Of a DNA stretch of 64,000 bases, positions 3,473 through 51,887 are shown piece by piece. The notes beneath the pieces were generated by a model. It searched no databases. It worked only from the letters and a program-made list of their open reading frames with translations, and had not been told where the DNA came from. Both the position numbers and the translations under genes were made by a program. This stretch comes from Psilocybe cubensis. Taxonomy: Eukaryota. The stretch is from contig CM039001.1 of assembly GCA_017499595.2 (NCBI GenBank), positions 558,001 to 622,000 of the forward strand, read 5' to 3'. Numbering within the stretch: the stretch's first letter is position 1; the number at the start of each line of letters is the position of its first letter.

Positions 3473-4083
3473 TTAAGAGTCGGAACTACATCCGCGACAT
3501 CCTAATAGTAAGGAGAATGACTATATGCGGTAGAAAAAAGGCGAGGAGCGAACATACCACAGTGAACACATTCGACGACAGTTCCTGATCGTACTTGAGC
3601 TTTGGGAACACGACATATACATGTTGATCCTTGATAATTCATATCCTAAACACACATTAGCGAACGAGGTTGAGTCAGTAAATGGCTCAAACATACCCTT
3701 GTTTGAATGCACCGAAGGCAGCAGAGCTTCTCATATCCAGTTTTCTTCCATTTAGCCACTAGGCTGTAAAGACCATCCAGAATAAGTATATGGACGTTTG
3801 TGTAATCAAAGAGACTTTACTTTGCATCTGCATATCCTTCCTTCAGTAACCAGTCGTACAACTCTCTTGAAATAGCTTCTCGTTTATAGTAGAGCTCATA
3901 AATGTATCTTGAGCGCGCATGAGAGATTCGCATGATAGGCCATAGCGATTCAGCCTTTCGTTTGCCTTCATGAGACTCGTTTTCGGCGTCACGCATCTTC
4001 TTTGCATAGTCTTCTAGAATCTCCTCTATATCTTCATAGCCTTCTGGTGGTGCTTTTGTTCTTGTTGTCCTGATTTTCGGCAT
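3473..4083 (-). CDS. BUD31: BUD31/G10 spliceosomal protein (4 exons)
   Basis: [20 protein letters not shown]...[61 protein letters not shown]. Confidence 0.96.
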
Positions 4084-4411
4084 CGCAGAGAAATTGTGGT
4101 GAGAGTACTAGTCCAAGTTACAGCCACAACTAGTCCGGATTGTGCCCTATGTATTACATAATACCCTCCTGCCACAAGCAACCATTCCACCGTGCGGCAG
4201 CATTGGCGACGTGCTGCTTGCTCCTCACCATCACAATTCTCACTCAGGAGGGCTTCCGAGGACTACTGTTTAACGCGTGTGGTACTGCGGGAAACCCTCT
4301 TAATACATGCAAATCGTGGCGCGGTAGCGTCGACTCTTGGTTGACACTCTTCAACTTGCGCGGTAGACGACACCAGGACGACACACTCTGTTCAGCTTTT
4401 CCAAAGCAACA

Positions 4412-6645: not shown

Positions 6646-7768
6646 AACAAAGTACAATTTTCTGTAGTCGGCCGCATTTCTTATTACAGGTTTGCTATAT
6701 AGCTCGAGCATACGAACACAATATTCCCTTAAAGTAACTTCCTCGCGTTATTTCTATTCGTCCACATATGTATATCTATCACCGCATTGGCATGTCTTCA
6801 AGGCTATTCTGGTTATTCTTACTTCGTAACGTTGTCATCTCCCATTTATTTTGTCGCGATAGATCATTATTAAATTGGAAAGTTACTTAGCCAGTGATCC
6901 CGGCGGTGAGTCGTTTTCATTGTGCGTCAATCGATGGATCTGTATGCGAAATGGCATCAACACCGAACTTGCTAAGTCACTAGCGGGATCCAAAACTAGG
7001 CTGATTTCGGAAATGCCCGATAGCTTATTTTGCTGGGTATCTTGGTCGTATCACTCGATGTTCAGCGACGCTACAGCATGGTTTGGCAGTTTGTGGCAGT
7101 GCGTTCTTTGGGTGTATGTGTTGCCTTGTAGGACGTTGCTAATTATTTTAAGTTGTTTCATACACTTTCAGTTCAAGTTGAAGATAGTAACTCATGTCAT
7201 CGTCTCGTAGCGATTTGAATCAACTCATCTCGACGACTGTGACCATGCATGGGAGCTTAGTAGAAATGTTAGAGTTGCTGCAAGACACGCGGCGAACATA
7301 AACATAAGTTTCAATTATAGGATCTGCATGCATCATTTGCCAATACATCTGTAATAATCATTAGCTTTTTTGTAAGGCATTTCGTTGTTTGAGCTTTGGC
7401 ACCGAATGTTGAATGGGTTTTAATCGGGATTAATAGAAAATTGCTTGTTTGAGTGATATCATTTGCGTTTAATTCTTTTAAATGGGATAGCAGTGGCGAA
7501 TGATATAGCAATGATTCACCGGTGTCGGTGAACTGCTATCATCTATGTAAAACAAATTGCAACGATCTATTATTGGCTATGTTTTCTGTTTTCAAAAGGT
7601 TTTTCCGTCCGGTCAACAAACTATTTTAAAAACCACAGACTGCTTTGGATCACAAAGGGCTTGCAACACATCGGGCCAGTATGGCAGTATCGAAGTGTTC
7701 TGGGTTATATAAGGTCAAGCACAATTCTTTGAGCCTTAATAACAGATCCCTCGGTCCTGATAATAACC

Positions 7769-8636
7769 ATGTCATCAAGTCAAAGTAAAGCAAAGAAGCC
7801 TCGCAAACCCGTCGTCTATCGAAATCGCCACAAGATTTTAAAAGACTTGAAAACAGAGGTAAGAAATATCACTCGTATGTTGGTGTAAATTCGTAACGTT
7901 GACCAATTAACACCATGGCTGACAGGATACAGAACATGGATTCCAACACCGTATCAAATTTCAATTGCAGACAAACAGTGAACCGGCTAGACATTCAGAA
8001 CCAGCGTTCTGCGGTGTTCTAGGTGACGATATAAGTGATTCAATTCAAATGACCGCACATAATTACAAAATAGTCCCCAAAAAATTGCACAATCGCGTCC
8101 GGGGACGTCAGAGTCGGGGTGTTGATAAAACTTCACACAATCCAGTCAACGAAGAATCACCAATATCTAATTGGCCGACATACCCATTAGGATGTACCCA
8201 TCCAGGAGTACTTGCCTATTCTCAGCCATTCAGTAAACCTGGAGTATTATTGGACGTTGATACTCAGTCCAGCATGGACAACACACAAAATATGGGAGCT
8301 TGCCAAGAATTTCCCACTGAACACGTCTTGGACCAGTCAAATTTTGAAATACGCTACGAAGATAATACTGATACCAGAGACTACCGTCTCTTCGGTGATG
8401 AATCTTGCAAGTTCAGCCCTATTTTCGATGCCACTGTTCCTCATGCTAAATGGCACCAAGGAACACGGAGACTTGATGTTCAGGGGTCATGTCAACCCTC
8501 CTATGATTCACACCACGTTTGCGTTTCCATTACCCCACAACCTGGGCCAATAAACTCGACTGTATTGTCCAATTCGTGGAGTGAAAATGCAGTGGGGCGT
8601 GGAGTTACATATACGTATTTGTATTCTCATCAATAA
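7769..8636 (+). CDS. Orphan hypothetical protein with basic N-terminus (2 exons)
   Basis: TATATAA at about 7706, ATG 7769, phase-0 GTAAGA...CTGACAG intron (7859-7926) joining in frame to the 223-aa ORF. Confidence 0.55.
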
Positions 8637-18387: not shown

Positions 18388-18629
18388 GGTTGTATCGTGA
18401 GGGACGTCTTCGCCGCTTTATATTAGACTCGTGGAGTGGACGCGAGTAATATTGATTGTTCAAGAGGATACAAACTCCGCTAATAATTCCCACCCGCATC
18501 GCTTTCCCGACCAGTACCGTCGCTCCGTCACTGTCATTTGTAAATAGTTCTCTCTGAGGGAGACAACCGACTGCCACTGGCCACTGGACATCTTGTAACA
18601 CACCTTCTTATTTATCCAGACCGGGAAAT

Positions 18630-19348
18630 ATGAGTCAAGTGCACCAGCAAGGAGGGGTATACCCACCTAAGGAGTATGTTGAATCTGCACCCATGCCCGC
18701 CAACATTCCCCACGTCGACGAGGTCGGAGCAACGAGTGGCCCGCTGAAGAGTGCATCCTTCTTTATTGGAGCGTATTGCAAGGAGTATAACGGTTCGTAC
18801 GCGTATTCGGCGTGGGCGCTTGGTTACGGGTGGTTGATTTGATGCGGTTGTTCTTTGGTCTACAGAGGATTTCATGCTTTGCAAAAATGAGAATCGGGAC
18901 CCTGCTCACTGCTTGAAGGAGGGAAGGAAAGTTACGCGATGTGCTATAGATTTGTGCGTGTATTCAGAGTTTACTGTTGGGGCTTCATTGCTGAATGTCA
19001 GTTTGTATACAGGATAACAAAGATGCGCGAGAACTGTGCCCAACAGTTTGATGCACACTGGGAGTGTTTGGAGAAAAGGAACCAAGTACGCGGCTGTATC
19101 TATGCTTCAAAAAGACTCCTCTAATCTTGTTTACGCAGGAGTTCTATCTTTGCCGCAAACAAGAACGAAAGCTCAACTCGTGTATGTTTGAGAAACTTGT
19201 AAGTTGCTAAAGAACCTAAGGCCGTCTGTGTTAAAACATTGTTGATGAAATTCTGCAGGGTCTGACAAAAACCATTCCTGGATCACCAGCAGGCCAGCCC
19301 CAAATTCACGAGGTGCAGAACCCCATATACAAGCCCATTCAGAAATAG
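18630..19348 (+). CDS. NDUFA8: NADH:ubiquinone oxidoreductase alpha subcomplex subunit 8 (CX9C protein)
   Basis: IPHVDEVGATSGPLKSASFFIGAYCKEYN|EDFMLCKNENRDPAHCLKEGRKVTRC...CAQQFDAHWECLE...CRKQE. Confidence 0.95.
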
Positions 19349-20251
19349 AGTGTTTTACGCGCCGAGTACCGATATTCAATACCAGTGCGAGGTCGAAGGG
19401 TGGGAGATCGGCTATGTCAGGGTCCTCCTTACTCCTTATTCCCCATAGATGAAGGTCCTGTACTACACATAGCTGAAAGTGGAAGAAGAAACATTTCTCA
19501 TTTTTCCTTTTGGAACCATTCAGCAAGTTAGATCGGAGGTCGTGAAATGACCTTGCACACTTCCAAGTTCCTGCCCCATTCTCACCAGATATGTGTCTTC
19601 TCAAATCAACATTTTAAACTATCTTGAGTATCAGGTGTGGTGAATGAACATTCGGGTTGAATGACAATGGGCAGAACTTGGGATAACATGGGATATATGA
19701 AGTCGAGATATATATTAGCCCAGTCGCGGCAGCGACTATTAGTATTCCGGAGTTTCGCTCGTGGTTGAATTAAATAAATCAGGGAAGCTCTTGCCAAATA
19801 TTAATAAACTAAGCGGGCCGTTACACGGAAATGTGGTCTTCAAAACTCATTAAAATTTAGAGTCGACTTCTCTCGGAAAACGGACGGTTGACGCACGTGA
19901 GGAGGCGCGGCGTAACAGCCTGTCACCCCCCTCACTGTAAATGTGTCACGCTGACCGTCGTCTTCCATTTTGGGAAGGCGTGATGGTCGATCGTCACCTC
20001 GCTTTACGCATGTTTCGTACTCAACCTATTGCTCCCCGTTGCCTCTATACCTCTTTTATTCGCTTCTCCGTCTATCGTTACCGCTTTTGCTAATTTCTCT
20101 TAATTACAGATGCAACTATGACCTCATTTCCAAAGGCTTTGAATTGCCAGCAGCAGCAACATCAACAAATCCGATCAGGAATCTCTATGGACCTACGCTT
20201 GTGTTGGCTCTCATCTTTGTCTTGACAGTCCTCGCTCTTCTTCCTGGGGCA

Positions 20252-21935
20252 ATGGAAGAACTTCAAAGCATCAATAAGTCATCAATTCTGTTGGAGGTTG
20301 ATGTTGAGAAAGGGCCGCCTCAGTCAGATGCAAGCAGGCTTCCGCTTCCCGCTCAGTCCAAAGGAGGTTCAGGGATCACGGTTTGCTACGTCGATGTGTG
20401 AGTCTTTCTGTTTTTACTTATATATTCCATTTCTAATGTAGTTTTATAGTTTTAATATGAAGAAAGCTGATTTGGTAGACCTGTGTCGCCAATACAAGCT
20501 TCCTGTTTCCGGTACAATCAAGGTTCTTATCGAGAGATTACAGGAGTTTAGTGGTCAGCGAGAACAATGGGACCGGTTAGCCTACTCTCTCTGTGCTTTC
20601 CTTCTAGGTGTTTATTATAGCTAATCTATTCCTACAAGACTCACTACAGGTGTTGCTCGTCGTTCTCATCTTGGGTTTAGCACCCATTCTTCTACAAAAC
20701 CAACAGCCAGCCACAAAAAGTCAGTGCAGCGTCGTGAAAAAATGTTTTTGGAGTCAACAAATACAGAAAATGGCAATCCGAAATCTCTTCCATCTATTCT
20801 ATCAACGGCAGTTCAGCCCTCTCATCAATGGTGTCAAACTCGTCGAGCTGCCGATCTTGATTGGGTACGCATGTTGTATATTTGTTTAGTTGCCCTACAA
20901 CTCATACTAAGCCCTCATTTGATGCTACAGGCACGTTATATTGTCAATTTATACCCATATCGTAGAGAAGAAACTAGGAATAGGTTGGCAGAGCGTGATG
21001 CGGCACAATTTAATCAGAAACGACTGGTAAGTAGTAAACATTCTTATTATTGTTTTATCATTAATTGTATCTATATATCTAGTTCTCAAGCTCAAATGAC
21101 GATGACGTTAAGGCTGGGATTGAGATAGCGAATGGCCATCTCTTAAAAATTGTCAACTGGGTTGAAGCTGGGACTACTTCTCCTCATCCAACTCCATCGC
21201 CCTCTCATCAGCTTCAACCAAGCACATCCCACTTTTCGGTGGCAGCTACTAAGGATTTGCAAAATTCTCAAGGTCATTCAATTTCTGCTTCTACCACAAC
21301 CACTCCTACTCGCACAGTAACTATGGCTAGTGGATCTATTACTTTTTCATCATCCGATGTTCCACCACCACCCGCTGTTTCATTTGCTTCTGATATTCCT
21401 GGATTGAATCGCATGTGGGACGATACAAGCATTTATTGGGATGGATATTCTGTGCTTACAATTAAGGGAACGGCCATTCCTATTGTATACTGGAAGGAGA
21501 TATACACCTCTAAGGGTAGTGTTGAATGGAAGCCGAAGCAGTGGGAGTCACTCAAAGGGAAATTTTTTGATTGGAAGGTAACTGGCTAATGTTCATTCTT
21601 GAATCTTGATGAATATGTTTTGACCGCTTTTTGCTCAGATTCTTGTCCATCAATGGCGACAAGGATCTCCCGAAGATTTCTGGGCTAAATTCACCAAAGA
21701 CGGCAAGATACTGGGCTATCGTCAAATTCTTGATCAACTCGCTGAACAAAGAACTGCTCATGATGCACTTTTTGCACAACAGATTATGCACGAGTATGGT
21801 AATCAATTTTCATCTATTTTTTCTTATGTTAAGAATGGGACAAGACATGTCAAGACAAAACCTTGTCATATTATTAAGCAGTACCGTAGGATGAAGGGTC
21901 TCATTAACGAAGACGACAATGATGAGGATAATTAG
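20252..21935 (+). CDS. SAP-domain protein with Trp-rich C-terminal domain (element gene 1, about 6 exons)
   Basis: Spliced: MKKADLVDLCRQYKLPVSGTIKVLIERLQEF (SAP consensus), ARRSHLG, LNRMWDDTSIYWDG...IPIVYWKEIY...QWESLKGKFFDWK|ILVHQWRQGSPEDFWAKF...DEDN*; start codon uncertain. Confidence 0.8.
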
Positions 21936-21984
21936 TTGATTATGTTTTTGCTCCAATATCTTACATCAATTATATATAATTTTA

Positions 21985-23668
21985 CTATGCACAGTGACAT
22001 GTTCGTCCACACATAAAGCACTTGACTGCAGGTGGTTTATCAGAATTAAAAAAGTCTTCTCGACGCTGTGTTGGGTTATCATTCCAAGATATTAGATATC
22101 TCACAATAGTGAGATTAGAAAATTCAGTACTCCATCCACCCCATTCACAAATAGTGCGAATAGACCAACGTCTTTCTGATGAAAGGTATTGGCAACCACC
22201 ACGACGGAAAGAGTGTGTTCCATATGGTATTGGATCAACGCCAATATCAAGAAGATTGTTTCGGAACAGCTCAAGAAATTGCTCTGATGTCTATTTGAAT
22301 GAGAAATAAGTAGAAGCATTTGTATAAATAGCATACCATGGGTATGTTATCAGCCGATGGCCTATCCCCAGATGCAATCTTTCGAAAAATGTAGCCATCG
22401 GTAATCTCGCTTGCATCAAGCCAATTTGCCATTGCACGAACAGGACAAAGATGAGCCTCATTTTCTGCTAGTAACCGCAGATAAAATGGCTTAATTCCTA
22501 AAGAAATATATATTAGAATAGACTTCAAATAGTTTAAAAAAGTTTTACCGCCATGCTGATGTGTTTTGCGAAATGGTAGTGTAAGAACCAGTCCAGGTGG
22601 ATTCATCTGATAAACAATATGTTCACGTCGGATTTTCAATACCTCATCTGATCGGAGTAGACAGAGAAAAGCAATTGTATAAATTGCCTCAAGAGCGCGT
22701 CGGGCTAATCCTCCTCCCCAATGGTTGCTATCTTGTTCTTTTCTAGACCCTGGAGCATAGGGTTTGATATCATAGTTTTCGGATTTATGATTTTCATCAT
22801 AAAGAGCTTTTAGAGTAGCTGAGGTGATTGCGCGTGCACTTGTTGGTGTTTCACCATTTCGAATCTAAAAAGGAGATATATAGTCAAAACTACAGCCAAT
22901 CAAGCAATTTGAGTGCAACTTGAACATTACCTTCCGAGCACGCAAACTCATCATGTATGTTGCTACGGTGTCGGATACTGATGGATTTCCTATCATTTTA
23001 CCCGTAAGCTCATTTCTTCTCCACCTATCTGAGCCTAAACCAAGTTCACGTCCAAAAAGATATGTCATAGACGCTCTCATCTTTTGGCCATGTACATAGG
23101 AATCACGGACAACATGTGTTGGCTTTAAAGTTCCATCAAGATAAATATCATCGCATCTAGAAAATACGGTAGTTTGAAAAAAATTCCAATAGAGAAAATC
23201 AATAAGCTTACTTGTCCATAATCCATGCCGCAATGAAAAAAGGTGCATCGTCGGGTGGATTGCAACAAGCAAAATCTTCACGTTTTTTAATCATGTTCTT
23301 GCTAATCAGAAACTTGATACATTGCTTGATAAGACTAGAATAAAAACAAAATAAGCGCACTATTTAGAAATGAAGACAGGATAGTATTACCGCTGATAAT
23401 CAGCATCAGTTTTGTCTGTGACTCCTTTAGATGCACCAGTAATTGTATCTCGCCACTTGGAAGCTGTTGGATTGTGGCTATCTAAATCTTCACTAGAAAG
23501 ATCATGAAGTGACAGATTGGGCAGAGTCTCTGTTTCACCGTCGAGATCGTTTTCAACGTCTTCTGGTATAAATGGTTCATTTTCAATAGTAGGAGAAGGA
23601 CTGCCAGATATAATGGAGTTTAGACCGGCATAGATTGAGTTTGAGGGCACCACCATTGAGGAAAGCAT
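21985..23668 (-). CDS. Tyrosine recombinase (DNA breaking-rejoining enzyme; element gene 2, multi-exon)
   Basis: Catalytic set in order: FLCLLRSDEV (R), PFRKTHQ (K), YGTHSFRRGG (HxxR), EWGGW (W), IVRYL (Y); also GNPSVS..YMMSL and HLCPVRA; ends CFMCGRTCHCA*; start approximate. Confidence 0.9.
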
Positions 23669-23883
23669 AGTAGGGATTAGATTTAAGAAATTGTAGCGGA
23701 AAGGAGTACACTGATTAGAATATATACTTTTGTAAAGCTTACTGCGGACAAAACAGATAGGAGTAGTAGACTCATTTGAAACACATTGTAAGAAGGCAAT
23801 TTACAGCAAGGAGGCGATCTAGTGGCATTATGGTGAAGACACGCTCAAACACGTAAAAAAACAAATATAAGCCATACCTAATT

Positions 23884-25484
23884 CTAAATACCCTCCATCA
23901 TATTACTTGGAATCCATGCACGTAGCTTTGGAAGACAATTTTGAATCCAAGAATCGACACTTGATTGATCAAATCGAGGATTTTCTTGAGCCGCTCGAAG
24001 CCTATTAATGCCATCTTGAATAATGTCTTTTGGAAAATCAATCTTGACACGTAATTCCGGAGAGCGCTTGCTAGATTGTCGCTTCCCAACAATTTGGCCA
24101 AAAAACATGTGGCCATAATAATGAAAGCCAATATCCCGAGCTCGAGCAATTTGCATTGCCGACCTAAGTGCAATTCCAGGAAGAATGCTGTTAGACAGGT
24201 GGCGTAACATAACCACAGCATCTGTACCCCATACGAAATGATCTTCGGCAAATAGCATCATGGCTGGAAGAGATAGTTGACGAGAAAAAAGAACTGGAAT
24301 GAGATCATCGGATACAACAGGATGGAGATAATAGCTTAGTATATCGGAAGAGGGAAAGTCTGCCGGAAGATTGTGGGCCAAAGATGGGCAGCGGCGAGGT
24401 AAATGAAATGAAGAATTGCTATGAGCTTCACTTATTAGCTGGCTTCGCCATTCATGTAGGAATTGTTGCTGTGCTTCTTGACTGTAGTTGTTTTCCTTAA
24501 GGCCACACGCTAGTGATCGACCAAAACCAGCTTTTGCAAGTCCAAGTGCTGTTTCAATGCCACAGCCTTTGACTCCACCCTTAATAAAAAAAAGTTATAA
24601 TACAATTAATAGAAAGAATAAATTGGAAAATTACAGGATTGTAGTCGCCACCAACCAATAGTGCAATAAGAACCATATCCTCGCTATTCATCTGAAGAGC
24701 TTGAAGAATATCAGATGATCGATATACAACCACCTGTTCATCATCGGACACATCTTCATCGCTATTAAAATGCCATATTAAAATTTAGATTGAGTTGAGC
24801 TAAAAGTGTACTTACATTCGCAAGACAGTTGTGGTACCAAATACAATACTATCAGAGTCTTCTGTAAGAACGGCATCGAGATAGTCCTCCTTTGTAAGTC
24901 TGGCAAGCTCCGCTTCAGCTTCACCAGGTGCCTATTCCCATAATATGTATGAGCCGCCCAAGCCTTAGGCTACTGCAATAACCAATAAAGAACATACCTC
25001 ACACCAAATAAAACCGTAAGCATCTAACAGCGATTTGAAATCAGCTTCAATCCAGTGGCGATTTCCCCTTATGTTCTTTTTGCGCTTTATACTTGGTTTG
25101 TTGGGGCCATCAAAGACAAAGATGGGCAGAATAGGAAGCGAGTATAGGCGGCTACAGCGAGCATTTAGAGTAGCAAGCTCCATATTCTTTGTAGCACCGT
25201 GTCGGTAGCATGCACGGTAAATCCACCCCCTATTGTCAATAACACCGAATCAATTTATGTTTTTGAAAAAGAAATCAACAATATATACATACATTGCATC
25301 AACACCAAGCCTATATCCTCGGGTTCCTTGACGGTTTGACATAAATCCATCCTCAACAGCCAGACGTTGAAACGAGGCTCGTGTTGCTACAGGGTCTAGT
25401 AGCTACATAAATCCAATCTGTCAGCAGCTACGTGCAAGAGTCATAGAAAGTCATACGCACCTTCCACAGGCCTTTAACGCCCAT
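23884..25484 (-). CDS. XPG/Rad2-family PIN nuclease, GEN1/Yen1-like (element gene 3, multi-exon)
   Basis: MGVKGLWK|LL, LGVDA, IFVFDGPNKPSIKR, APGEAEAELA, DAVLTEDSDSIVFG, IALLVGGDYNP|GGVKGCGIETA, FPSSDILSYYLHPVVS, RAWIP; 3' end may include a further exon. Confidence 0.88.
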
Positions 25485-26410
25485 CGTATGGAGGCTAAAC
25501 GAAAGCTAGATCAATAGCGGACAAAAGATAGATATAAGATAAACCCACCCGAAATGTTTTGCAAATGTCTAAGCATCAATGTCTGTGAACAGAAACGCAT
25601 ACAGACCACGATAATGAGCCAAACTATTACAAAAGGGGTATTATTTGAGCAAAGATTGTGATCTACACAAAAAACTCAAGAGTTCTAGCTGTAATTTAAA
25701 ATAAATCATATTAATTTTGTAAAAGCGGAGTAGTAGAACAAATGCACGGCAATAAACACCTCATGCTAGCCATACAGAAGCGCCTCGGCCCAGGGATGAT
25801 CCTTAGTTTCTTCTGTACGGCTAGCATGTGGTGCCTAGCAGACACGGCAATATAATAGAATAATATTTTTCAGTACTTGAAAAGCACAACCATAGGCCTG
25901 TGTACGTGTCTGCATGCATGCGAAGAAAGGATTTGAGGTGGCGGCAGTGATGCAAGGAAAGATGATGGATGGTGTGAATGTGTATCTATAGCTTATACTC
26001 AGTAATACGAATAAAATCAAGAATCAAAGAAGAGGGCACTGGCAGCCTAGTGTATGCCCAGGCATGAGTATTCCTGGGCTGCCATTGTGCGACGAAAAGG
26101 ATGGGGGTATTCCATAATAAAGTATCAGAACACACCTAGATTCCAATTCTATCCTCTACGTAGCACCCTAAATCAAACAATCTAGCTTGCGCTGCAGGGC
26201 AATTTGCATGACTAAACGGCTCCGTTGAGCGACAACACTGCAAAAAAAATGCTAAGATACTTACCGGAGTGAGCCTCTTGACCAACCTACGAGACAGACG
26301 TATCTCATAAATTATAGCACCACACAGCTGATGGAGGGAGATGTGCATGGATGGGACGCAAGGAGGAGGTGCATGAACGGGAGAGAGCAGGAATCATCGA
26401 TTCAACCAAC

Positions 26411-26521
26411 ACGCGTGCCAGCACTACACGTGATTGGACGTGCTGATTGTAATTCACGCGACTCCTGTAAATTCACGCGACTCCTGTAAGATTCACGCGA
26501 CTCCCTGGTTAAAACACGCGT
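26411..26521. promoter_or_regulatory. Cluster of ACGCG cores: three ATTCACGCGACTCC direct repeats flanked by two ACGCGT (copy 2 at 33958-34068)
   Basis: Repeats at 26452, 26471, 26491; ACGCGT at 26411 and 26516; CACGTG and ATTGG nearby; function is inferred. Confidence 0.5.
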
Positions 26522-27798
26522 TACGCACGTTGTATATGGCAGTGTCGTGCCTCGGCAGCAGGCATTAGTGTAGTACGTGAGATAACAAGGTGTGAACGTC
26601 ATTCTCTCACTATGAACTGTCTTTTTTTACAGTAGAACTGTCTTTTATTGGCCCAATTGAGGTAAGCTTGATGCCGTATTTGCCTTCTGATCGTCATTTC
26701 TGAGCCTTGGCTCAATTTCGTAGTTTCCAATCTCGCCAATTAGTCAATACGTTAGTCACACCAATCCACGGCAATCCACCCTACGTAAAAAAGAATGTTT
26801 TATTGTTCAATTCTACGGTTATGGTGTGTAGTGCGGCATTGAACCTTAAGCTTAGCCAAACTCAAAACCCACTGCCCTCCTGCGAGGAATTTCTCTATGG
26901 AACGGGTCCCTTGAACGTGCTCCAGCAAACTCTAAGTTTTTACAGAAGGTCAGAATCTGAGTCGTAATAATATGTCATATTAGTTAGATCCGGTAAACTA
27001 CAAATCAGCACGAATATGTAGCTTTAAAACAAGCCTTGTTCCCCCTCTCCTTCTTTCCATCTTTCTGCGTCCGTCGTCGGTGTCAAAGCATCTCGAAAAA
27101 AATGCCTGTTGCAATTGATTCATCCGCCCTAGTATGGCAGTGAGTAGGGTTTTATGTACTATCTGGTCGCAAGCTTGCTCCATGCTTTTACTGTTACTTG
27201 TGCCCTCAGAACTTTTCGTTTTTCTTGCTGCTGCCATCCCGAGGCCCTCCACGGCGACGCCGTTTGAACCCGTTTTGAGTGATCGAGGGCACCTCGGCAC
27301 ACCTCTCGTGCGAGGGTTGTGCGAGGGTTAGGGTCGATCGTAACGCTGTGACCGATGGCGCCGATCGCTTTGTCAGGCTGTGCCAACCGTCTTTCTGCTC
27401 GGTCGCAGCTGTACTTCTCTCGGAAAACGGACGGTTGACGCACGTGAGGAGGCGCGGCGTAACAGCCTGTCACCCCCCTCACTGTAAATGTGTCACGCTG
27501 ACCGTCGTCTTCCATTTTGGGAAGGCGTGATGGTCGATCGTCACCTCGCTTTACGCATGTTTCGTACTCAACCTATTGCTCCCCGTTGCCTCTATACCTC
27601 TTTTATTCGCTTCTCCGTCTATCGTTACCGCTTTTGCTAATTTCTCTTAATTACAGATGCAACTATGACCTCATTTCCAAAGGCTTTGAATTGCCAGCAG
27701 CAGCAACATCAACAAATCCGATCAGGAATCTCTATGGACCTACGCTTGTGTTGGCTCTCATCTTTGTCTTGACAGTCCTCGCTCTTCTTCCTGGGGCA

Positions 27799-29482
27799 AT
27801 GGAAGAACTTCAAAGCATCAATAAGTCATCAATTCTGTTGGAGGTTGATGTTGAGAAAGGGCCGCCTCAGTCAGATGCAAGCAGGCTTCCGCTTCCCGCT
27901 CAGTCCAAAGGAGGTTCAGGGATCACGGTTTGCTACGTCGATGTGTGAGTCTTTCTGTTTTTACTTATATATTCCATTTCTAATGTAGTTTTATAGTTTT
28001 AATATGAAGAAAGCTGATTTGGTAGACCTGTGTCGCCAATACAAGCTTCCTGTTTCCGGTACAATCAAGGTTCTTATCGAGAGATTACAGGAGTTTAGTG
28101 GTCAGCGAGAACAATGGGACCGGTTAGCCTACTCTCTCTGTGCTTTCCTTCTAGGTGTTTATTATAGCTAATCTATTCCTACAAGACTCACTACAGGTGT
28201 TGCTCGTCGTTCTCATCTTGGGTTTAGCACCCATTCTTCTACAAAACCAACAGCCAGCCACAAAAAGTCAGTGCAGCGTCGTGAAAAAATGTTTTTGGAG
28301 TCAACAAATACAGAAAATGGCAATCCGAAATCTCTTCCATCTATTCTATCAACGGCAGTTCAGCCCTCTCATCAATGGTGTCAAACTCGTCGAGCTGCCG
28401 ATCTTGATTGGGTACGCATGTTGTATATTTGTTTAGTTGCCCTACAACTCATACTAAGCCCTCATTTGATGCTACAGGCACGTTATATTGTCAATTTATA
28501 CCCATATCGTAGAGAAGAAACTAGGAATAGGTTGGCAGAGCGTGATGCGGCACAATTTAATCAGAAACGACTGGTAAGTAGTAAACATTCTTATTATTGT
28601 TTTATCATTAATTGTATCTATATATCTAGTTCTCAAGCTCAAATGACGATGACGTTAAGGCTGGGATTGAGATAGCGAATGGCCATCTCTTAAAAATTGT
28701 CAACTGGGTTGAAGCTGGGACTACTTCTCCTCATCCAACTCCATCGCCCTCTCATCAGCTTCAACCAAGCACATCCCACTTTTCGGTGGCAGCTACTAAG
28801 GATTTGCAAAATTCTCAAGGTCATTCAATTTCTGCTTCTACCACAACCACTCCTACTCGCACAGTAACTATGGCTAGTGGATCTATTACTTTTTCATCAT
28901 CCGATGTTCCACCACCACCCGCTGTTTCATTTGCTTCTGATATTCCTGGATTGAATCGCATGTGGGACGATACAAGCATTTATTGGGATGGATATTCTGT
29001 GCTTACAATTAAGGGAACGGCCATTCCTATTGTATACTGGAAGGAGATATACACCTCTAAGGGTAGTGTTGAATGGAAGCCGAAGCAGTGGGAGTCACTC
29101 AAAGGGAAATTTTTTGATTGGAAGGTAACTGGCTAATGTTCATTCTTGAATCTTGATGAATATGTTTTGACCGCTTTTTGCTCAGATTCTTGTCCATCAA
29201 TGGCGACAAGGATCTCCCGAAGATTTCTGGGCTAAATTCACCAAAGACGGCAAGATACTGGGCTATCGTCAAATTCTTGATCAACTCGCTGAACAAAGAA
29301 CTGCTCATGATGCACTTTTTGCACAACAGATTATGCACGAGTATGGTAATCAATTTTCATCTATTTTTTCTTATGTTAAGAATGGGACAAGACATGTCAA
29401 GACAAAACCTTGTCATATTATTAAGCAGTACCGTAGGATGAAGGGTCTCATTAACGAAGACGACAATGATGAGGATAATTAG
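27799..29482 (+). CDS. SAP-domain protein, copy 2
   Basis: Same ORF translations as 20252-21935 at offset +7547. Confidence 0.8.
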
Positions 29483-29531
29483 TTGATTATGTTTTTGCTC
29501 CAATATCTTACATCAATTATATATAATTTTA

Positions 29532-31215
29532 CTATGCACAGTGACATGTTCGTCCACACATAAAGCACTTGACTGCAGGTGGTTTATCAGAATTAAAAAA
29601 GTCTTCTCGACGCTGTGTTGGGTTATCATTCCAAGATATTAGATATCTCACAATAGTGAGATTAGAAAATTCAGTACTCCATCCACCCCATTCACAAATA
29701 GTGCGAATAGACCAACGTCTTTCTGATGAAAGGTATTGGCAACCACCACGACGGAAAGAGTGTGTTCCATATGGTATTGGATCAACGCCAATATCAAGAA
29801 GATTGTTTCGGAACAGCTCAAGAAATTGCTCTGATGTCTATTTGAATGAGAAATAAGTAGAAGCATTTGTATAAATAGCATACCATGGGTATGTTATCAG
29901 CCGATGGCCTATCCCCAGATGCAATCTTTCGAAAAATGTAGCCATCGGTAATCTCGCTTGCATCAAGCCAATTTGCCATTGCACGAACAGGACAAAGATG
30001 AGCCTCATTTTCTGCTAGTAACCGCAGATAAAATGGCTTAATTCCTAAAGAAATATATATTAGAATAGACTTCAAATAGTTTAAAAAAGTTTTACCGCCA
30101 TGCTGATGTGTTTTGCGAAATGGTAGTGTAAGAACCAGTCCAGGTGGATTCATCTAATAAACAATATGTTCACGTCGGATTTTCAATACCTCATCTGATC
30201 GGAGTAGACAGAGAAAAGCAATTGTATAAATTGCCTCAAGAGCGCGTCGGGCTAATCCTCCTCCCCAATGGTTGCTATCTTGTTCTTTTCTAGACCCTGG
30301 AGCATAGGGTTTGATATCATAGTTTTCGGATTTATGATTTTCATCATAAAGAGCTTTTAGAGTAGCTGAGGTGATTGCGCGTGCACTTGTTGGTGTTTCA
30401 CCATTTCGAATCTAAAAAGGAGATATATAGTCAAAACTACAGCCAATCAAGCAATTTGAGTGCAACTTGAACATTACCTTCCGAGCACGCAAACTCATCA
30501 TGTATGTTGCTACGGTGTCGGATACTGATGGATTTCCTATCATTTTACCCGTAAGCTCATTTCTTCTCCACCTATCTGAGCCTAAACCAAGTTCACGTCC
30601 AAAAAGATATGTCATAGACGCTCTCATCTTTTGGCCATGTACATAGGAATCACGGACAACATGTGTTGGCTTTAAAGTTCCATCAAGATAAATATCATCG
30701 CATCTAGAAAATACGGTAGTTTGAAAAAAATTCCAATAGAGAAAATCAATAAGCTTACTTGTCCATAATCCATGCCGCAATGAAAAAAGGTGCATCGTCG
30801 GGTGGATTGCAACAAGCAAAATCTTCACGTTTTTTAATCATGTTCTTGCTAATCAGAAACTTGATACATTGCTTGATAAGACTAGAATAAAAACAAAATA
30901 AGCGCACTATTTAGAAATGAAGACAGGATAGTATTACCGCTGATAATCAGCATCAGTTTTGTCTGTGACTCCTTTAGATGCACCAGTAATTGTATCTCGC
31001 CACTTGGAAGCTGTTGGATTGTGGCTATCTAAATCTTCACTAGAAAGATCATGAAGTGACAGATTGGGCAGAGTCTCTGTTTCACCGTCGAGATCGTTTT
31101 CAACGTCTTCTGGTATAAATGGTTCATTTTCAATAGTAGGAGAAGGACTGCCAGATATAATGGAGTTTAGACCGGCATAGATTGAGTTTGAGGGCACCAC
31201 CATTGAGGAAAGCAT
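29532..31215 (-). pseudogene. Tyrosine recombinase, copy 2, with premature stop
   Basis: Codon 30154-30156 reads TAG on the minus strand where copy 1 (22607-22609) has CAG (IVYQMN); lies between the catalytic R and K in one exon. Confidence 0.78.
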
Positions 31216-31430
31216 AGTAGGGATTAGATTTAAGAAATTGTAGCGGAAAGGAGTACACTGATTAGAATATATACTTTTGTAAAGCTTACTGCGGACAAAA
31301 CAGATAGGAGTAGTAGACTCATTTGAAACACATTGTAAGAAGGCAATTTACAGCAAGGAGGCGATCTAGTGGCATTATGGTGAAGACACGCTCAAACACG
31401 TAAAAAAACAAATATAAGCCATACCTAATT

Positions 31431-33031
31431 CTAAATACCCTCCATCATATTACTTGGAATCCATGCACGTAGCTTTGGAAGACAATTTTGAATCCAAGAA
31501 TCGACACTTGATTGATCAAATCGAGGATTTTCTTGAGCCGCTCGAAGCCTATTAATGCCATCTTGAATAATGTCTTTTGGAAAATCAATCTTGACACGTA
31601 ATTCCGGAGAGCGCTTGCTAGATTGTCGCTTCCCAACAATTTGGCCAAAAAACATGTGGCCATAATAATGAAAGCCAATATCCCGAGCTCGAGCAATTTG
31701 CATTGCCGACCTAAGTGCAATTCCAGGAAGAATGCTGTTAGACAGGTGGCGTAACATAACCACAGCATCTGTACCCCATACGAAATGATCTTCGGCAAAT
31801 AGCATCATGGCTGGAAGAGATAGTTGACGAGAAAAAAGAACTGGAATGAGATCATCGGATACAACAGGATGGAGATAATAGCTTAGTATATCGGAAGAGG
31901 GAAAGTCTGCCGGAAGATTGTGGGCCAAAGATGGGCAGCGGCGAGGTAAATGAAATGAAGAATTGCTATGAGCTTCACTTATTAGCTGGCTTCGCCATTC
32001 ATGTAGGAATTGTTGCTGTGCTTCTTGACTGTAGTTGTTTTCCTTAAGGCCACACGCTAGTGATCGACCAAAACCAGCTTTTGCAAGTCCAAGTGCTGTT
32101 TCAATGCCACAGCCTTTGACTCCACCCTTAATAAAAAAAAGTTATAATACAATTAATAGAAAGAATAAATTGGAAAATTACAGGATTGTAGTCGCCACCA
32201 ACCAATAGTGCAATAAGAACCATATCCTCGCTATTCATCTGAAGAGCTTGAAGAATATCAGATGATCGATATACAACCACCTGTTCATCATCGGACACAT
32301 CTTCATCGCTATTAAAATGCCATATTAAAATTTAGATTGAGTTGAGCTAAAAGTGTACTTACATTCGCAAGACAGTTGTGGTACCAAATACAATACTATC
32401 AGAGTCTTCTGTAAGAACGGCATCGAGATAGTCCTCCTTTGTAAGTCTGGCAAGCTCCGCTTCAGCTTCACCAGGTGCCTATTCCCATAATATGTATGAG
32501 CCGCCCAAGCCTTAGGCTACTGCAATAACCAATAAAGAACATACCTCACACCAAATAAAACCGTAAGCATCTAACAGCGATTTGAAATCAGCTTCAATCC
32601 AGTGGCGATTTCCCCTTATGTTCTTTTTGCGCTTTATACTTGGTTTGTTGGGGCCATCAAAGACAAAGATGGGCAGAATAGGAAGCGAGTATAGGCGGCT
32701 ACAGCGAGCATTTAGAGTAGCAAGCTCCATATTCTTTGTAGCACCGTGTCGGTAGCATGCACGGTAAATCCACCCCCTATTGTCAATAACACCGAATCAA
32801 TTTATGTTTTTGAAAAAGAAATCAACAATATATACATACATTGCATCAACACCAAGCCTATATCCTCGGGTTCCTTGACGGTTTGACATAAATCCATCCT
32901 CAACAGCCAGACGTTGAAACGAGGCTCGTGTTGCTACAGGGTCTAGTAGCTACATAAATCCAATCTGTCAGCAGCTACGTGCAAGAGTCATAGAAAGTCA
33001 TACGCACCTTCCACAGGCCTTTAACGCCCAT
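31431..33031 (-). CDS. GEN1/Yen1-like XPG nuclease, copy 2
   Basis: Same ORF translations as 23884-25484 at offset +7547. Confidence 0.88.
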
Positions 33032-34989
33032 CGTATGGAGGCTAAACGAAAGCTAGATCAATAGCGGACAAAAGATAGATATAAGATAAACCCACCCGAA
33101 ATGTTTTGCAAATGTCTAAGCATCAATGTCTGTGAACAGAAACGCATACAGACCACGATAATGAGCCAAACTATTACAAAAGGGGTATTATTTGAGCAAA
33201 GATTGTGATCTACACAAAAAACTCAAGAGTTCTAGCTGTAATTTAAAATAAATCATATTAATTTTGTAAAAGCGGAGTAGTAGAACAAATGCACGGCAAT
33301 AAACACCTCATGCTAGCCATACAGAAGCGCCTCGGCCCAGGGATGATCCTTAGTTTCTTCTGTACGGCTAGCATGTGGTGCCTAGCAGACACGGCAATAT
33401 AATAGAATAATATTTTTCAGTACTTGAAAAGCACAACCATAGGCCTGTGTACGTGTCTGCATGCATGCGAAGAAAGGATTTGAGGTGGCGGCAGTGATGC
33501 AAGGAAAGATGATGGATGGTGTGAATGTGTATCTATAGCTTATACTCAGTAATACGAATAAAATCAAGAATCAAAGAAGAGGGCACTGGCAGCCTAGTGT
33601 ATGCCCAGGCATGAGTATTCCTGGGCTGCCATTGTGCGACGAAAAGGATGGGGGTATTCCATAATAAAGTATCAGAACACACCTAGATTCCAATTCTATC
33701 CTCTACGTAGCACCCTAAATCAAACAATCTAGCTTGCGCTGCAGGGCAATTTGCATGACTAAACGGCTCCGTTGAGCGACAACACTGCAAAAAAAATGCT
33801 AAGATACTTACCGGAGTGAGCCTCTTGACCAACCTACGAGACAGACGTATCTCATAAATTATAGCACCACACAGCTGATGGAGGGAGATGTGCATGGATG
33901 GGACGCAAGGAGGAGGTGCATGAACGGGAGAGAGCAGGAATCATCGATTCAACCAACACGCGTGCCAGCACTACACGTGATTGGACGTGCTGATTGTAAT
34001 TCACGCGACTCCTGTAAATTCACGCGACTCCTGTAAGATTCACGCGACTCCCTGGTTAAAACACGCGTTACGCACGTTGTATATGGCAGTGTCGTGCCTC
34101 GGCAGCAGGCATTAGTGTAGTACGTGAGATAACAAGGTGTGAACGTCATTCTCTCACTATGAACTGTCTTTTTTTACAGTAGAACTGTCTTTTATTGGCC
34201 CAATTGAGGTAAGCTTGATGCCGTATTTGCCTTCTGATCGTCATTTCTGAGCCTTGGCTCAATTTCGTAGTTTCCAATCTCGCCAATTAGTCAATACGTT
34301 AGTCACACCAATCCACGGCAATCCACCCTACGTAAAAAAGAATGTTTTATTGTTCAATTCTACGGTTATGGTGTGTAGTGCGGCATTGAACCTTAAGCTT
34401 AGCCAAACTCAAAACCCACTGCCCTCCTGCGAGGAATTTCTCTATGGAACGGGTCCCTTGAACGTGCTCCAGCAAACTCTAAGTTTTTACAGAAGGTCAG
34501 AATCTGAGTCGTAATAATATGTCATATTAGTTAGATCCGGTAAACTACAAATCAGCACGAATATGTAGCTTTAAAACAAGCCTTGTTCCCCCTCTCCTTC
34601 TTTCCATCTTTCTGCGTCCGTCGTCGGTGTCAAAGCATCTCGAAAAAAATGCCTGTTGCAATTGATTCATCCGCCCTAGTATGGCAGTGAGTAGGGTTTT
34701 ATGTACTATCTGGTCGCAAGCTTGCTCCATGCTTTTACTGTTACTTGTGCCCTCAGAACTTTTCGTTTTTCTTGCTGCTGCCATCCCGAGGCCCTCCACG
34801 GCGACGCCGTTTGAACCCGTTTTGAGTGATCGAGGGCACCTCGGCACACCTCTCGTGCGAGGGTTGTGCGAGGGTTAGGGTCGATCGTAACGCCGTGACC
34901 GATGGCGCCGATCGCTTTGTCAGGCTGTGCCAACCGTCTTTCTGCTCGGTCGCAGCTGTACTTCTTCAAACGAAAAGGGCACAGGAGCT

Positions 34990-40218: not shown

Positions 40219-41566
40219 TAAGAGAAAATCTTTGGTGAAAGTAGCAAACGTTGAGTAGACCTGTTGGGAGCAGGTTGCTCAGTATTTGAGAGGAAGTGGG
40301 GGATAGACCACAGTGGATATTATTCGGTTCTTCTGATTCTCGTGGCTTTTATAAAAGTCAGTAAATCTACTTTTGTCAGAGTACAGCAATTGCGATGCAA
40401 ACGCCGATATCGAAATTGTAATAGCAGATGCGGCACATTCCACACCTCCTCAATCGTGGTAATTGTTAAATTATAGACAGCTAGAGAGCTTCCCCTGGAT
40501 CACTTATGTCTCCTTTGCAGATCAAGGAAAGGCCCTCAGCTGTCTCTTGAAGACTTGAAGTACGCTCACTATCCTTGATAACGATTCTACATTGTGGTAT
40601 ATCACAATTTTGCTCTGGGAAAATAACACCTTTTATGTGCATATTCAATGATAAGATGTCAGAAACTTGAATTTGGCGAGTGAAGCATTTTTCCAAGTTA
40701 CACGTTATACTGAGGACGGATCATATCGAACCGTGGCTACTCGCGTCTTCGGAGGCATCTGTTCCGATGCCCAAAAATACATCAATACCCACTTCCTGAG
40801 ATAAAACCACATAGAGAAGAACGCGTGAGTGGAGTGTCCGCGAGGATGCGCTTTCCAGATGCAGTGCCTCGGAACTCTACAAAAGGCCGATAATTGGCAC
40901 TAAAAGCCATTCTCAGTGCTGAGCGGAGTGCCAAGAATTTGCCCGTCCATAAAAATAGCACCGATGGTTGAACGCGACGAAGAAAACACAGGCCAATAAC
41001 ACTGTGCGTACCTTTACGAAGGGAATATAGCAATCATCTTGAGAGTCAAGGCGACGTCAATGTATGCAAGGATTCTGGGTGAACATAAGAAGCTTCATAA
41101 TCAGTAGTTCCATTAGGAAACATAATTACCGTAATATGATGCAGGTGATGATTGGTCGAGACACTGCCAGTGGTGGTCAATAGGCTGATTGTAAGCTGTT
41201 TCCCTTTAATCATCATTCAGCACTTGTTACATATTGAATCCGAACAAAAAGCTTAAATATCGACAAAAGGCTTATAAAACAAAGATGTGATAGTTTGAAA
41301 CCATATATAAATATTGTTTTTCTTCAAGCTGTCTTCCTCTGTCTTCCTTCCTCTCGCACCCTGTCCCGAGTTAAGTGGCATTACATAGGATACTATACTT
41401 TCTAGTATGGCATTGTATGCATCATTATCTCACCGTCGCGAAAGAGTCTATCTCAATGATTACTTGATCTATTATTCGGCCTGGTACTTAAGACCTGCTA
41501 TCGTAGCGGTTTTCTTCTGTGAGTGTTTAAATCATAGCCAACACCGGAGACTAACATAGCCATGCA

Positions 41567-42303
41567 GTGGAACCAGTCTTAATCACTGAGACCAACGGCA
41601 AAATATCGACTACTGTTGGCCAAATTGAACAAGAGTCCAATGCAACTCTTATTTGTAGAGATAGGTGGCACAGATTGAACGTGAGTTAATACCTGCGCTT
41701 TAGTATCTACGTGGAAATAATGTTGAATTTTGTGTTCAAGATTCACCTTTCACTGAATCCTTTCAAAATATTACCGTATGTACACGTCTATAGCGAGCGT
41801 TCTCCGGCCAGTTCTCTTATCTACAACTTTCCTGCAGCTCACAGACAATATATGTCTCGATCTGCATAGGGTATTGGGGCCGACAATTATATCCTCTGTG
41901 AGTCTTTAATTAGTCGTTCCTCGATATTTCCCTCTGATAGTTCATGACACCCTCTCTTAATATATAGATATCCTGGTTAGTTTTTAATTGTCAGTGACTG
42001 TCGTCACAACAATTTAAACACAGGAGAAGCCTATACAAGACGGGCTTCTACCTTCTTCCCCTACTTCTGGGATGTTGCCATCAACCAGCTCACATGTTTG
42101 ACTTGGGAGTATGTCCTTTCTTTGTATTGGGGTACGGAGCACCGGAGACGCCTCTGAAGTGGATCATGACACCCAGAGGGTCCGTCATTCGAATTTACAA
42201 CCTCTGCAAGGTCGACCCTGTCTTGTATGCGGCCGTAAGGCGTCAAGGAAAGTTATTGGTTGCATATCTGCGCATTTGTTTATTCCTGGATTCATATATC
42301 CAC
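41567..42303 (+). pseudogene. Truncated, frameshifted paralog of the orphan gene at 48086-49480
   Basis: High nucleotide similarity to about 48581-49300 including introns; 1-nt deletion in the mini-exon and 4-nt deletion near 42120. Confidence 0.8.
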
Positions 42304-42653: not shown

Positions 42654-43766
42654 TTATATTAGAATAGCATTTTCTTCGACACGATCGCCTCCCATGATAC
42701 GTTCCGTCCTAGCTTCGCAGACCACAATTCTACGAATAATTGATAGGTTGTGGTGGTACATCTCCGTAGAGGTGTTACCCAGTTGGCCTGGGTCAAAATC
42801 AGTTTGAGATGGGAAACCAGTCGCATATGATTCGATGTCTGAACGGCGGAGACGTAATCCCCAGATACTACCTCTATAAGCATCAACTAAATGAACCTTT
42901 TCAAGACTCAAAGCTACATTGAAAGATAAAAGTTGTCGGCTGCACCACGTCAGTACATAGAGAGAAAGACATACATGGGTCGAGAATCAGAGATGCGACA
43001 ACAAATGGATGGAGAAAGATAGCTTGGCCAAGATAGAGCGAGCGAAGAGAGGGTATGACAGGTAGTCGGATGCTGGTATGAACCGACGACATATTGATGT
43101 GTGTCAGTTTGAGTTCGGTAAGATTCGTGTGCTCTGAGAGGGCACGGAATAGATAGGGAATTGCTTGTGGAACAATCTTCAAGATGAGTTAGCAACGTAG
43201 AGAAGGTGTAGGGAAAAAATGAAGACATACGGCGATGGAAAAATGGTGCGGGGGGTCTGGCCCTATCCATACAAATCGGCGAGGACTATTTCCACATGTG
43301 TGAAACCACGCTTCTGTGAATCCAAAGGGCAAGGAGCTCACTTGACGAGCGAAAGAGATGTATAGATCATGTCGATGTGAGGCTGGAATGCATGCGAGTT
43401 CAGTCGCAGGCTAAGAAGATCCAAGCTCATCCGTCCATTCTCGTCTCTTTCCACACCATCACTGGCAAAGAAACATCGGGAAAATAAGGTGAATAGATCG
43501 GTGAATACCAGGTTAGATTCGTCAGCAGTTATATCAAGTTCGATTGTGCGCGGAGGCAGAGGTGCGGATCTTCTCTGGTCACTGTAGGTGGCAATAAACA
43601 ATGAAAGCTGAGCGCGAGACGAGAAACGTAATGTCGAATACAAGTTTCTCAGACATATGTCGTGAAATGCGGTACAAGTCGCCAAAAGCGCTGTTACTGA
43701 TCGTTTTTTCAGGCTCAGCGAATAGTCCAATATATCGTAAAGAATTTCTAGAGGCAATACCGACAT
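42654..43766 (-). CDS. Hypothetical protein with F-box-like N-terminus and LRR-like segments
   Basis: MSVLPLEILYDILDY; NLTELKLTHI, PSLRSLYLGQAIFL, LEKVHLVDAYRGSIWGLRLRRSD; canonical introns. Confidence 0.65.
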
Positions 43767-43969
43767 ATTTGATGTCGTGTTCAAAGTCTGATTGGAAATA
43801 TTATCGGGCAAAGAGGGGTGTAAAGCGGTACAAGCATTCAAACAAACGACGGTTCTCCGATCCTTACAGGAAGGAACACGTGAGAGGGATAAACAACGCG
43901 TCCACAGCCACTTCAGAAGTGTTCACCTTTGGTTTACTCAGTACGTCTTCCTTGCACAATCGATTTCCA

Positions 43970-51256: not shown

Positions 51257-51887
51257 TTCGTTTCTGGGGCATTCTTTCCAAGAAAGTTATATTTTGACTG
51301 TGATTGATCCTGTACAAAGCCGAGATGTTGATTATGTATAATACACAAGAAGAATAAGAGGTCGAGAACACGGATAAGAGAACAAGAACAAGAACAAGAA
51401 AAAGAAAAACAGAACAAGAACAAGGAATTAGCTGTTTATATTCCAAAGTACCATTCCATCAGTCAGACCTTGGGCATAGTATGAGTACGTTCCTTTGAAT
51501 TTGATCGTGATTGTGAGGATTCCAGGTGTAGTCGTCAAGAAGAAATATAATGCCAAGAATGATTAGAAATGAAATGGGCGAAGCCGAGCGGTAGACGTTA
51601 TATAGACACAGTGGAGTGGAGTGGAGAAGTGAATTGAGGTGAAAAAAAAAAGATTTGAGGAAAAACGGACGAAGAGCAAACCATGAAATAACGAACATTC
51701 GAGCCGAATGCGAGTCGGGATAGTCGATGATATGGTAACTCTATAGTGAAAAAGACAAAAAAGGAAGAAGAAAAAGCAAGAGTGCGAAAGCAACGAGCGA
51801 ACGAAAGCGATGACAGGAGGGTGATGTGGTGTGATGCGGGTATCCAATCCTGGTCCTGGTACACAACAAAACAAACAAACAAATATA

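Follow-up and report, generated by a model that had tools for sequence, protein, structure and literature searches.

The DNA analyzed here is a 64,000-nucleotide stretch of the Psilocybe cubensis genome (assembly GCA_017499595.2, contig CM039001.1, positions 558,001 to 622,000 of the forward strand), hereafter the window, in which position 1 is the first base. The window harbors two tandem copies of a 7.5-kb unit that carries a GEN1/Yen1-like nuclease gene, a tyrosine recombinase gene and a SAP-domain gene. The features of this locus are as follows:

19866-27412: element copy 1, a 7,547-bp unit including one 6-bp ACTTCT, as delimited by self-BLAST
27413-34959: element copy 2, arranged head-to-tail in tandem with copy 1
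19866-19871, 27413-27418 and 34960-34965: ACTTCT at the left end, at the copy junction and at the right end, respectively
23884-25484, minus strand: GEN1/Yen1-like XPG nuclease gene of copy 1, six exons, 434 amino acids (aa)
31431-33031: nuclease gene of copy 2, identical to that of copy 1
21985-23668, minus strand: tyrosine recombinase gene of copy 1, six exons mapped
29532-31215, minus strand: tyrosine recombinase gene of copy 2, with a premature stop
~20457-21935 (approximate span), plus strand: SAP-domain gene, convergent with the recombinase gene; its counterpart in copy 2 lies at ~28004-29482
25485-27412: ~1.9 kb without a recognized gene, from upstream of the nuclease gene to the right end

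The self-comparison aligned 19866-27418 with 27413-34965 at 99.97% identity across 7,553 bp, the whole tandem dimer extending over 19866-34965. Only two positions differ between the copies, namely the equivalents of 22609 (G/A) and 27347 (T/C). Four public runs carrying the same species label were then compared to the left flank plus one unit. In the raw reads of one of these runs (X8), a depth of ~35 on the flank fell to zero across 20072-25749, and 22 reads passed from the left flank through ACTTCT (19871) directly into the right flank of the window, the hexamer being single in this empty site. The same precise empty site was observed in a 30-kb contig of X10 and in a 50-kb contig of X7. Additionally, a 7,484-bp contig of X7 harbors a copy of the element elsewhere, which is 99% identical, begins at base 19866 and tracks the unit up to 27356, differing by 51 substitutions and 32 gap positions, while the 25 bases preceding 19866 in that contig match neither the local flank nor the right end of the element. 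The left end of the element is fixed to the base. Together, the empty site in X8, X10 and X7 and the X7 copy in a different flank revealed that the unit is an insertion which is present, absent or located elsewhere depending on the strain. The unit has no long inverted or direct terminal repeats, that is, no terminal inverted repeats (TIRs) and no long terminal repeats (LTRs), and its open reading frames (ORFs) produced no match to reverse transcriptase (RT) or RNase H. The combination of a tyrosine recombinase, the lack of RT, LTRs and TIRs, and the differences between strains indicated a recently mobile Crypton-like element.

Within this unit, the nuclease gene starts with an ATG at 25484 and ends with a stop codon at 23884-23886. 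Its six exons in copy 1 (25484-25461, 25402-25293, 25229-24998, 24931-24816, 24761-24635 and 24579-23884) are interspersed with five introns of 54-66 nt, all of them bounded by GT..AG. The spliced product is 100% identical over 434 aa to the database protein P0001, which bears the NCBI name 'Flap endonuclease GEN-like protein 1 [Psilocybe cubensis]'. In the Pfam search, XPG_I scored 70.7 bits (cut-off 24.9) and XPG_N 35.4 bits (cut-off 22). Seven acidic residues, D43 (GVDA), D85 (VFDG), E126/E128 (EAEAE), D147/D149 (EDSD) and D200 (GGDY), fall in the conserved acidic columns both of a solved GEN1 and of 40 homologs. With XPG_N, XPG_I and the metal-binding acids all in place, the sequence assigns P0001 to the Rad2/XPG (FEN) superfamily of nucleases, and the enzyme looks catalytically intact. 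The nuclease stop codon is separated by 215 bp from the ATG of the recombinase gene (23668), which follows downstream on the same strand. In X11, a run guessed to be RNA, spliced contigs were found on the flanking genes only and none on the element, the X11 strain being one that may lack it.

GEN1 and Yen1 resolve Holliday junctions and 5' flaps, and the sequence and structure comparisons both placed P0001 closer to GEN1 than to FEN1, EXO1 or Rad2/XPG. The best sequence match in the PDB was the GEN1 resolvase (6grb/5cnq; E 4e-47, residues 1-295), followed at a distance by Rad2 (6e-17), archaeal FEN1 (9e-17) and EXO1 (2e-5). An AlphaFold2 model made from 40 homologs reached a mean predicted local distance difference test score (pLDDT) of 93.3 and a predicted template modeling score (pTM) of 0.92, and its top Foldseek match was again GEN1 (5co8; E 1.1e-24, 446 alignment columns). 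When the model was superposed with VIA-align, GEN1 6grd gave a Z of 36.3 with a root-mean-square deviation of 2.9 A over 378 aligned residues, covering residues 2-434 of the model, and human GEN1 (5t9j) covered the same range with a Z of 28.3; the corresponding Z values were ~28.5 for XPG, 25.8 for Rad2 and FEN1, and 20.5 for EXO1. The alignments of XPG, Rad2 and nearly all FEN1 chains to the model stop at ~340-355, whereas the GEN1 chains continue up to their own residues 448-451. The region beyond this point, residues 363-434, is predicted to form strands at 363-370, 378-383 and 423-427, a two-helix insert and a terminal helix at 428-433, and the model accordingly shows a predicted chromodomain directly behind the nuclease core. 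Neither the Pfam GEN1_C profile nor a GEN1_C profile made from 24 relatives gave P0001 any score; its C-terminal region appears too diverged for GEN1_C to be detected at the sequence level. The chromodomain is described as a hallmark of GEN1/Yen1 that is required for efficient cleavage, and the control of Yen1 by cyclin-dependent kinase (CDK), which confines its activity to anaphase, is located to the tail and to an insert of the chromodomain, according to Lee et al. (PMC5039027). P0001 stops at residue 434, immediately past the chromodomain, and has a length of 434 aa against 800-1350 aa in its canonical GEN1_C-bearing relatives; the long C-terminal regulatory region found in Yen1, with its CDK sites and nuclear localization signal, is missing. 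The model thus depicts a compact nuclease of the GEN1/Yen1 type, predicted to be structure-selective, in which a core with seven acids is followed by a chromodomain and not by a long tail.

These results agree in most respects with the first-pass annotation, a reading of the DNA letters that had proposed a compact and catalytically intact GEN1/Yen1-like nuclease at these coordinates, ending about 200 bp before the recombinase frame on the same strand. The position and the spacing were correct, the five acidic motifs it had listed are all present, and the length comparison bears out its description of the protein as compact. The PDB matches, the predicted model and the seven acids likewise favor its view of a GEN1/Yen1-like enzyme that looks intact.

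The recombinase gene of copy 1 is distributed over the exons 23668-23391, 23334-23212, 23156-22931, 22864-22549, 22497-22337 and 22290-21985, the last of which holds HSFRRGGCQ...TIVRYLISW...CFMCGRTCHCA. The motifs LLRSDE, HSFRRGG and TIVRY provide the catalytic Arg, the His-x-x-Arg and the Tyr. A profile of the recombinase family matched the solved integrase catalytic domain of 3nkh with an E of 9.1e-5, and the Pfam Phage_integrase scores of the recombinases, from 12.8 to 25.6 bits, were under the cut-off of 27.1. Five full-length recombinases had no match to GCR1_C (E <=1), DUF3504 or DUF3435, and one of the five exhibited a weak match to NDC10_II (E 0.0066). In copy 2 of the element, a Gln codon has become a stop at 30154-30156, corresponding to 22607-22609 of copy 1, which changes HIVYQMNPP into HIVY*MNPP; the frame of copy 1 is open. 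The database model P0005 leaves out exactly this Gln-to-stop stretch, as if it had been predicted from the stop-bearing copy.

The evolutionary context of the nuclease was examined in a full-library search, which retrieved 5,677 relatives at E <=0.001 and 584 at E <=1e-30. Pfam annotation of 55 relatives separated a long kind (~570-1350 aa, most of them >=800) with clear GEN1_C from a compact kind (~360-540 aa) lacking it. In a FastTree phylogeny of 193 nuclease cores, P0001 was placed in a 27-row clade of compact proteins (SH-like support 99), apart from a 64-row group consisting mostly of GEN1_C-bearing sequences (support 81) and from a second group of compact proteins, with 50 rows (support 91). 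A quick IQ-TREE search on 72 rows, to which P0007 and the nuclease of a metagenome locus (L001) had been added, recovered a corresponding 29-row clade with a Shimodaira-Hasegawa-like approximate likelihood ratio test (SH-aLRT) support of 98. This clade lies amid basidiomycete GEN1 sequences, apart from the canonical GEN1_C-bearing group, and contains all seven of the recombinase-linked nucleases included in that tree. Its members are 31-55% identical to P0001, the nearest relatives being at ~50%, and at each of the seven catalytic positions the acid is kept in 25-29 of the 29 members. Among the named matches, two or more compact paralogs per species were present in several fungi, including Gymnopilus junonius, Lyophyllum atratum, Mycena floridula and Desarmillaria tabescens.

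The linkage between the nuclease and a recombinase extends past the window. Six gene models run the nuclease into a recombinase, namely P0007 (Cyclocybe aegerita), P0141, P0144, P0156, P0174 and P0240, and together with the window and L001 they make up eight linked cases, six of the eight being known from fused gene predictions. Of these models, P0141, P0144, P0156 and P0174 belong to the 27-row FastTree clade. In all eight, the nuclease is upstream of the recombinase and on the same strand. The fused recombinases of P0174 and of P0240, the latter a member of the second compact clade, are distant from that of the window, and the sequences therefore leave room for a linkage that may reach beyond this element family.

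Tyrosine recombinases work through a Holliday-junction intermediate. We propose that an ancestral element captured a host YEN1/GEN1, that the captured gene would then have lost its C-terminal tail, and that it would have been retained as an optional accessory module a short way upstream of the recombinase gene, where its most likely job would be the cleavage of branched DNA that the element itself produces. We consider this reading, taken as a whole, to have about an even chance of being right. One candidate substrate would be the Holliday junctions left by the first strand exchange of the recombinase, for instance where the 6-bp overlap or the target arms match imperfectly. Another would be the junctions or flaps of element circles that are multimeric or replicating; such multimers could yield a tandem dimer like the one seen at 19866-34965, which is compatible with the proposal.

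Several lines of evidence weigh against this role. Metagenome contigs were scanned with the recombinase alignment, and the best 80 of 259 relatives, whose loci are short, were searched with 18 nuclease queries at E <=0.1. An XPG gene was detected at one of the 80 recombinase loci (L001), which amounts to one of the 19 loci having 2 kb or more of sequence upstream of where the recombinase starts and one of the 26 having at least 1.5 kb. At a further locus (L056), a host mannosyltransferase gene is situated ~1 kb upstream of the recombinase, so close that there is no space for a nuclease gene. In a 109-row tree of the recombinases, five rows are linked to a nuclease, two of them representing the same P. 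cubensis gene; these five are scattered among nuclease-free ones and require four changes, which indicates that the nuclease module was lost or gained repeatedly. Catalytic acids are substituted in four members of the nuclease clade (P0150, P0174, P0245 and P0158), and both nuclease trees are quick searches without bootstraps. Moreover, tyrosine recombinases normally resolve their own junctions.

The SAP-domain gene, in turn, proved to be the usual partner of the recombinase: where a locus extended 700 bp or more downstream (48 loci), the two genes were neighbors in 38. They were convergent with the SAP gene downstream in 28 loci, while the SAP gene was upstream on the opposite strand in nine and upstream on the same strand in one. 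In L001, the gene order is that of the window, with the nuclease at 3963-5444, the recombinase at 6233-7789 and the SAP gene reversed at 7945-8413. Since the nuclease accompanies so few of these recombinases and the SAP gene most of them, the recombinase and the SAP gene would form the core of the family, and the nuclease, judging from the gene content of these loci, appears to be an optional accessory module and not a core function. It is not required for the movement of this recombinase family and, as strains without the element exist, it is dispensable for the species.

The same comparison does not support the suggestion of the first-pass annotation that the nuclease may be a core transposition or replication function, as related recombinase elements usually lack it, an outcome that the annotation had itself named as refuting. 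Its other suggestion, that the gene belongs to a mobile unit and not to the host gene set, agrees with the empty sites in other runs and with at least eight independent recombinase-linked cases, and the expansion of XPG-like paralogs that it considered possible in these fungi is matched by the multi-copy state of the compact type in several Agaricomycete genomes. A phylogeny, which it had recommended, placed P0001 in the compact clade apart from the canonical GEN1_C group. The possibility it had raised that the gene might be the only YEN1 ortholog of the host was not borne out, the gene being absent from X8 and X10.

The patchiness of the module on the recombinase tree, its absence from most related elements and the degenerate active sites of some clade members would all be expected if the nuclease were passive or host-directed cargo, that is, a YEN1/GEN1 copy taking no part in transposition, which either hitch-hikes or acts as an unregulated resolvase that is neutral or useful to the host. 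We regard this as possible but rather doubtful, because the seven placed linked nucleases all belong to one old clade, the position and orientation relative to the recombinase are the same in the eight cases (two of them, P0174 and P0240, with distant recombinases), and most clade members retain the catalytic residues; a single old clade, a fixed placement and preserved acids form a pattern unexpected of random cargo. A further alternative draws on the head-to-tail dimer, in which the nuclease would serve the replication or maintenance of an extrachromosomal plasmid- or virus-like circle by processing flaps and resolving concatemers during copying of the excised circle, and would not act in the recombination step. 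In many viruses and phages, concatemers are processed by a FEN-type nuclease or junction resolvase of their own. The unit, however, contains no polymerase, helicase or replication-initiator gene, XPG and SAP being the only Pfam matches on its ORFs, and this explanation seems to us quite improbable.

The least credible of the alternatives, to which we assign a very low probability, is that the nuclease is the ordinary YEN1 of the host with an element landed alongside, or that the 15-kb block arose when host DNA was duplicated in tandem through microhomology. A tandem duplication could indeed acquire a 6-bp repeat at its ends in this way. Against this stand the zero depth of the unit, nuclease included, in X8 and its absence from the X10 contigs, as well as the X7 strain, which is empty at this site and has its 99% identical copy elsewhere beginning at the same base, and the position of the protein outside the canonical GEN1_C clade. 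A host YEN1 ortholog was rejected on account of the strain-variable locus and the separate, well-supported 29-row clade.

A broader version of the proposal that the nuclease cuts the branched DNA of its own element would treat the compact, tail-less GEN1 paralogs of Agaricomycetes as transposon genes as a class, comprising the 29-row clade and perhaps the second compact clade too, given that P0240 is fused to a recombinase. Here, a two-enzyme Crypton-like mechanism would operate, in which the recombinase performs the first strand exchange only and the deregulated junction resolvase of the element finishes the reaction. We consider this extension unlikely. If it were true, integration would be possible at targets sharing little beyond the 6-bp core, and this would be the first case of a eukaryotic transposon family equipped with a junction resolvase of its own.

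In comparison with known systems, the window element comes closest to Cryptons, which, in the available part of the work of Kojima and Jurka (PMC3212892), are described as lacking TIRs and long repeats and as having 4-6-bp terminal direct repeats that are the presumed recombination substrates. It shares with them a tyrosine recombinase as the sole recombinase, 6-bp terminal direct repeats matching the target, and the lack of RT, TIRs and long repeats. Facultative second genes are known in Cryptons (PMC3212892, PMC13465315), and the list in the accessible text of the second, dated 2026, comprises only a DDE transposase, a C48 peptidase and helix-turn-helix (HTH) proteins (PMC13465315). Unlike in these, the window element has a SAP-domain gene and a GEN1-like nuclease as its second genes. 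It represents a Crypton-like element with a new gene set. An assignment to CryptonF was rejected, as the five full-length recombinases had no match to the GCR1_C domain of CryptonF, and so was an assignment to Starships, there being no match to the DUF3435 of their 'captain' and the unit consisting of 7.5 kb with three genes as opposed to a giant cargo element. Starship-like elements have not been characterized in Basidiomycota, as stated in the part available of a 2026 preprint.

The nuclease itself resembles the GEN1/Yen1 resolvases of known structure (5cnq, 5co8, 6grb-d, 5t9j) in the succession of a Rad2/XPG core with seven acids and a chromodomain, and these are its best full-length matches; it departs from canonical GEN1/Yen1 in being 434 aa long without a regulatory tail, multi-copy, strain-variable, element-borne and placed in a separate clade. 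Academ DNA transposons, which are said to encode an XPG nuclease, would set a precedent for a nuclease of this family in a eukaryotic transposon; they are DDE cut-and-paste elements, whereas the window element is a tyrosine-recombinase element. In the Tec1/Tec2 transposons of ciliates, a second DNA enzyme is thought to resolve transposition intermediates, as far as described in the available part of the Crypton study (PMC3212892). There, a tyrosine recombinase helps a DDE transposase, whereas in the window element the recombinase is the mover and the nuclease the possible helper.

Our literature search found no paper joining a tyrosine-recombinase transposon to an XPG, GEN1 or Yen1 nuclease. 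Eukaryotic tyrosine-recombinase DNA transposons are poorly understood and, to our knowledge, no such element has been mobilized as a defined laboratory system. With its exact ends, its known empty site, the differences in presence and position between strains, and an intact copy located beside a copy with a dead recombinase, the element at this locus makes a workable model. A GEN1-type resolvase beside a recombinase provides a direct and testable link from a host repair enzyme family to transposition, and it offers a possible explanation for the many XPG paralogs annotated as 'PIN domain-like' in mushroom genomes. Without the tail by which Yen1 is held in check, the enzyme carried by the element may be a compact junction resolvase that is deregulated by nature.

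Among the remaining parts of the unit, the SAP-domain gene was recognized by a Pfam SAP score of 34.4 bits, obtained with the ORF of the copy 2 equivalent. P0019, a gene model from Suillus, has the SAP-domain gene fused to the recombinase, and a tblastn search with its SAP-gene part matched 21335-21592 and 21642-21839. The C-terminal region of the SAP gene product is conserved and carries no annotation, and a protein atlas search with this product returned no usable match.

In the ~1.9 kb between the nuclease gene and the right end, the ORFs had no Pfam match. Imperfect inverted repeats pair across the copy junction, 27371-27391 with 27430-27472 (pairs I2 and I4); two junction-spanning 11-mer pairs with at most one mismatch were observed against 0.077 expected, a count reached in 6 of 300 shuffles. 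When the non-coding ends of the element were compared to the 80 recombinase loci, matches were confined to coding regions and no conserved terminal motif emerged. An Rfam search on the unit found no family.

Two further observations concern the unit sequence. When the reference was compared with the X7 contigs of the flank and of the element copy, 52 of the 57 differences were transitions, C>T and G>A making up 38 of them, and both differences between the tandem copies are transitions as well; this excess may reflect the deamination of methylated repeat DNA. A 46-bp palindromic stretch at 26042-26087 is the sole part of the unit that drew reads, along with several short contigs, in element-free strains, and this coverage indicates that it represents a separate multi-copy short genomic repeat.

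In the chromosomal neighborhood, a small four-intron gene at 18518-19331 (plus strand) is located just to the left of the insertion site, and a contig covering it in X11, the presumptive RNA run, had a very high word depth of 341; the last transcript contig stops at 19741, ~125 bp short of the element. An Argonaute gene (Piwi, ArgoL2, ArgoMid) was found at 51563-53714 on the minus strand, 17 kb from the element. The presence of a Na+/H+ exchanger gene at 1752-2945 and of a MoeA/gephyrin-like gene at 57739-59380 is indicative of an ordinary chromosomal neighborhood. Elsewhere in the genus, the available part of one study mentions a 'novel hypothetical tyrosine recombinase' in the psilocybin cluster of Psilocybe gandalfiana, where it lies between psiK and psiH (PMC11812301). 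Two other repeat pairs are present in the window. Direct repeats of ~750 bp at 41554-42302 and 48568-49300, 88% identical and ~7 kb apart, enclose an F-box-like ORF at 43338-43922 and may represent either a segmental duplication or the LTRs of an ancient retroelement, and the segments 47109-47537 and 63224-63654 form an inverted pair of ~430 bp with 77% identity.

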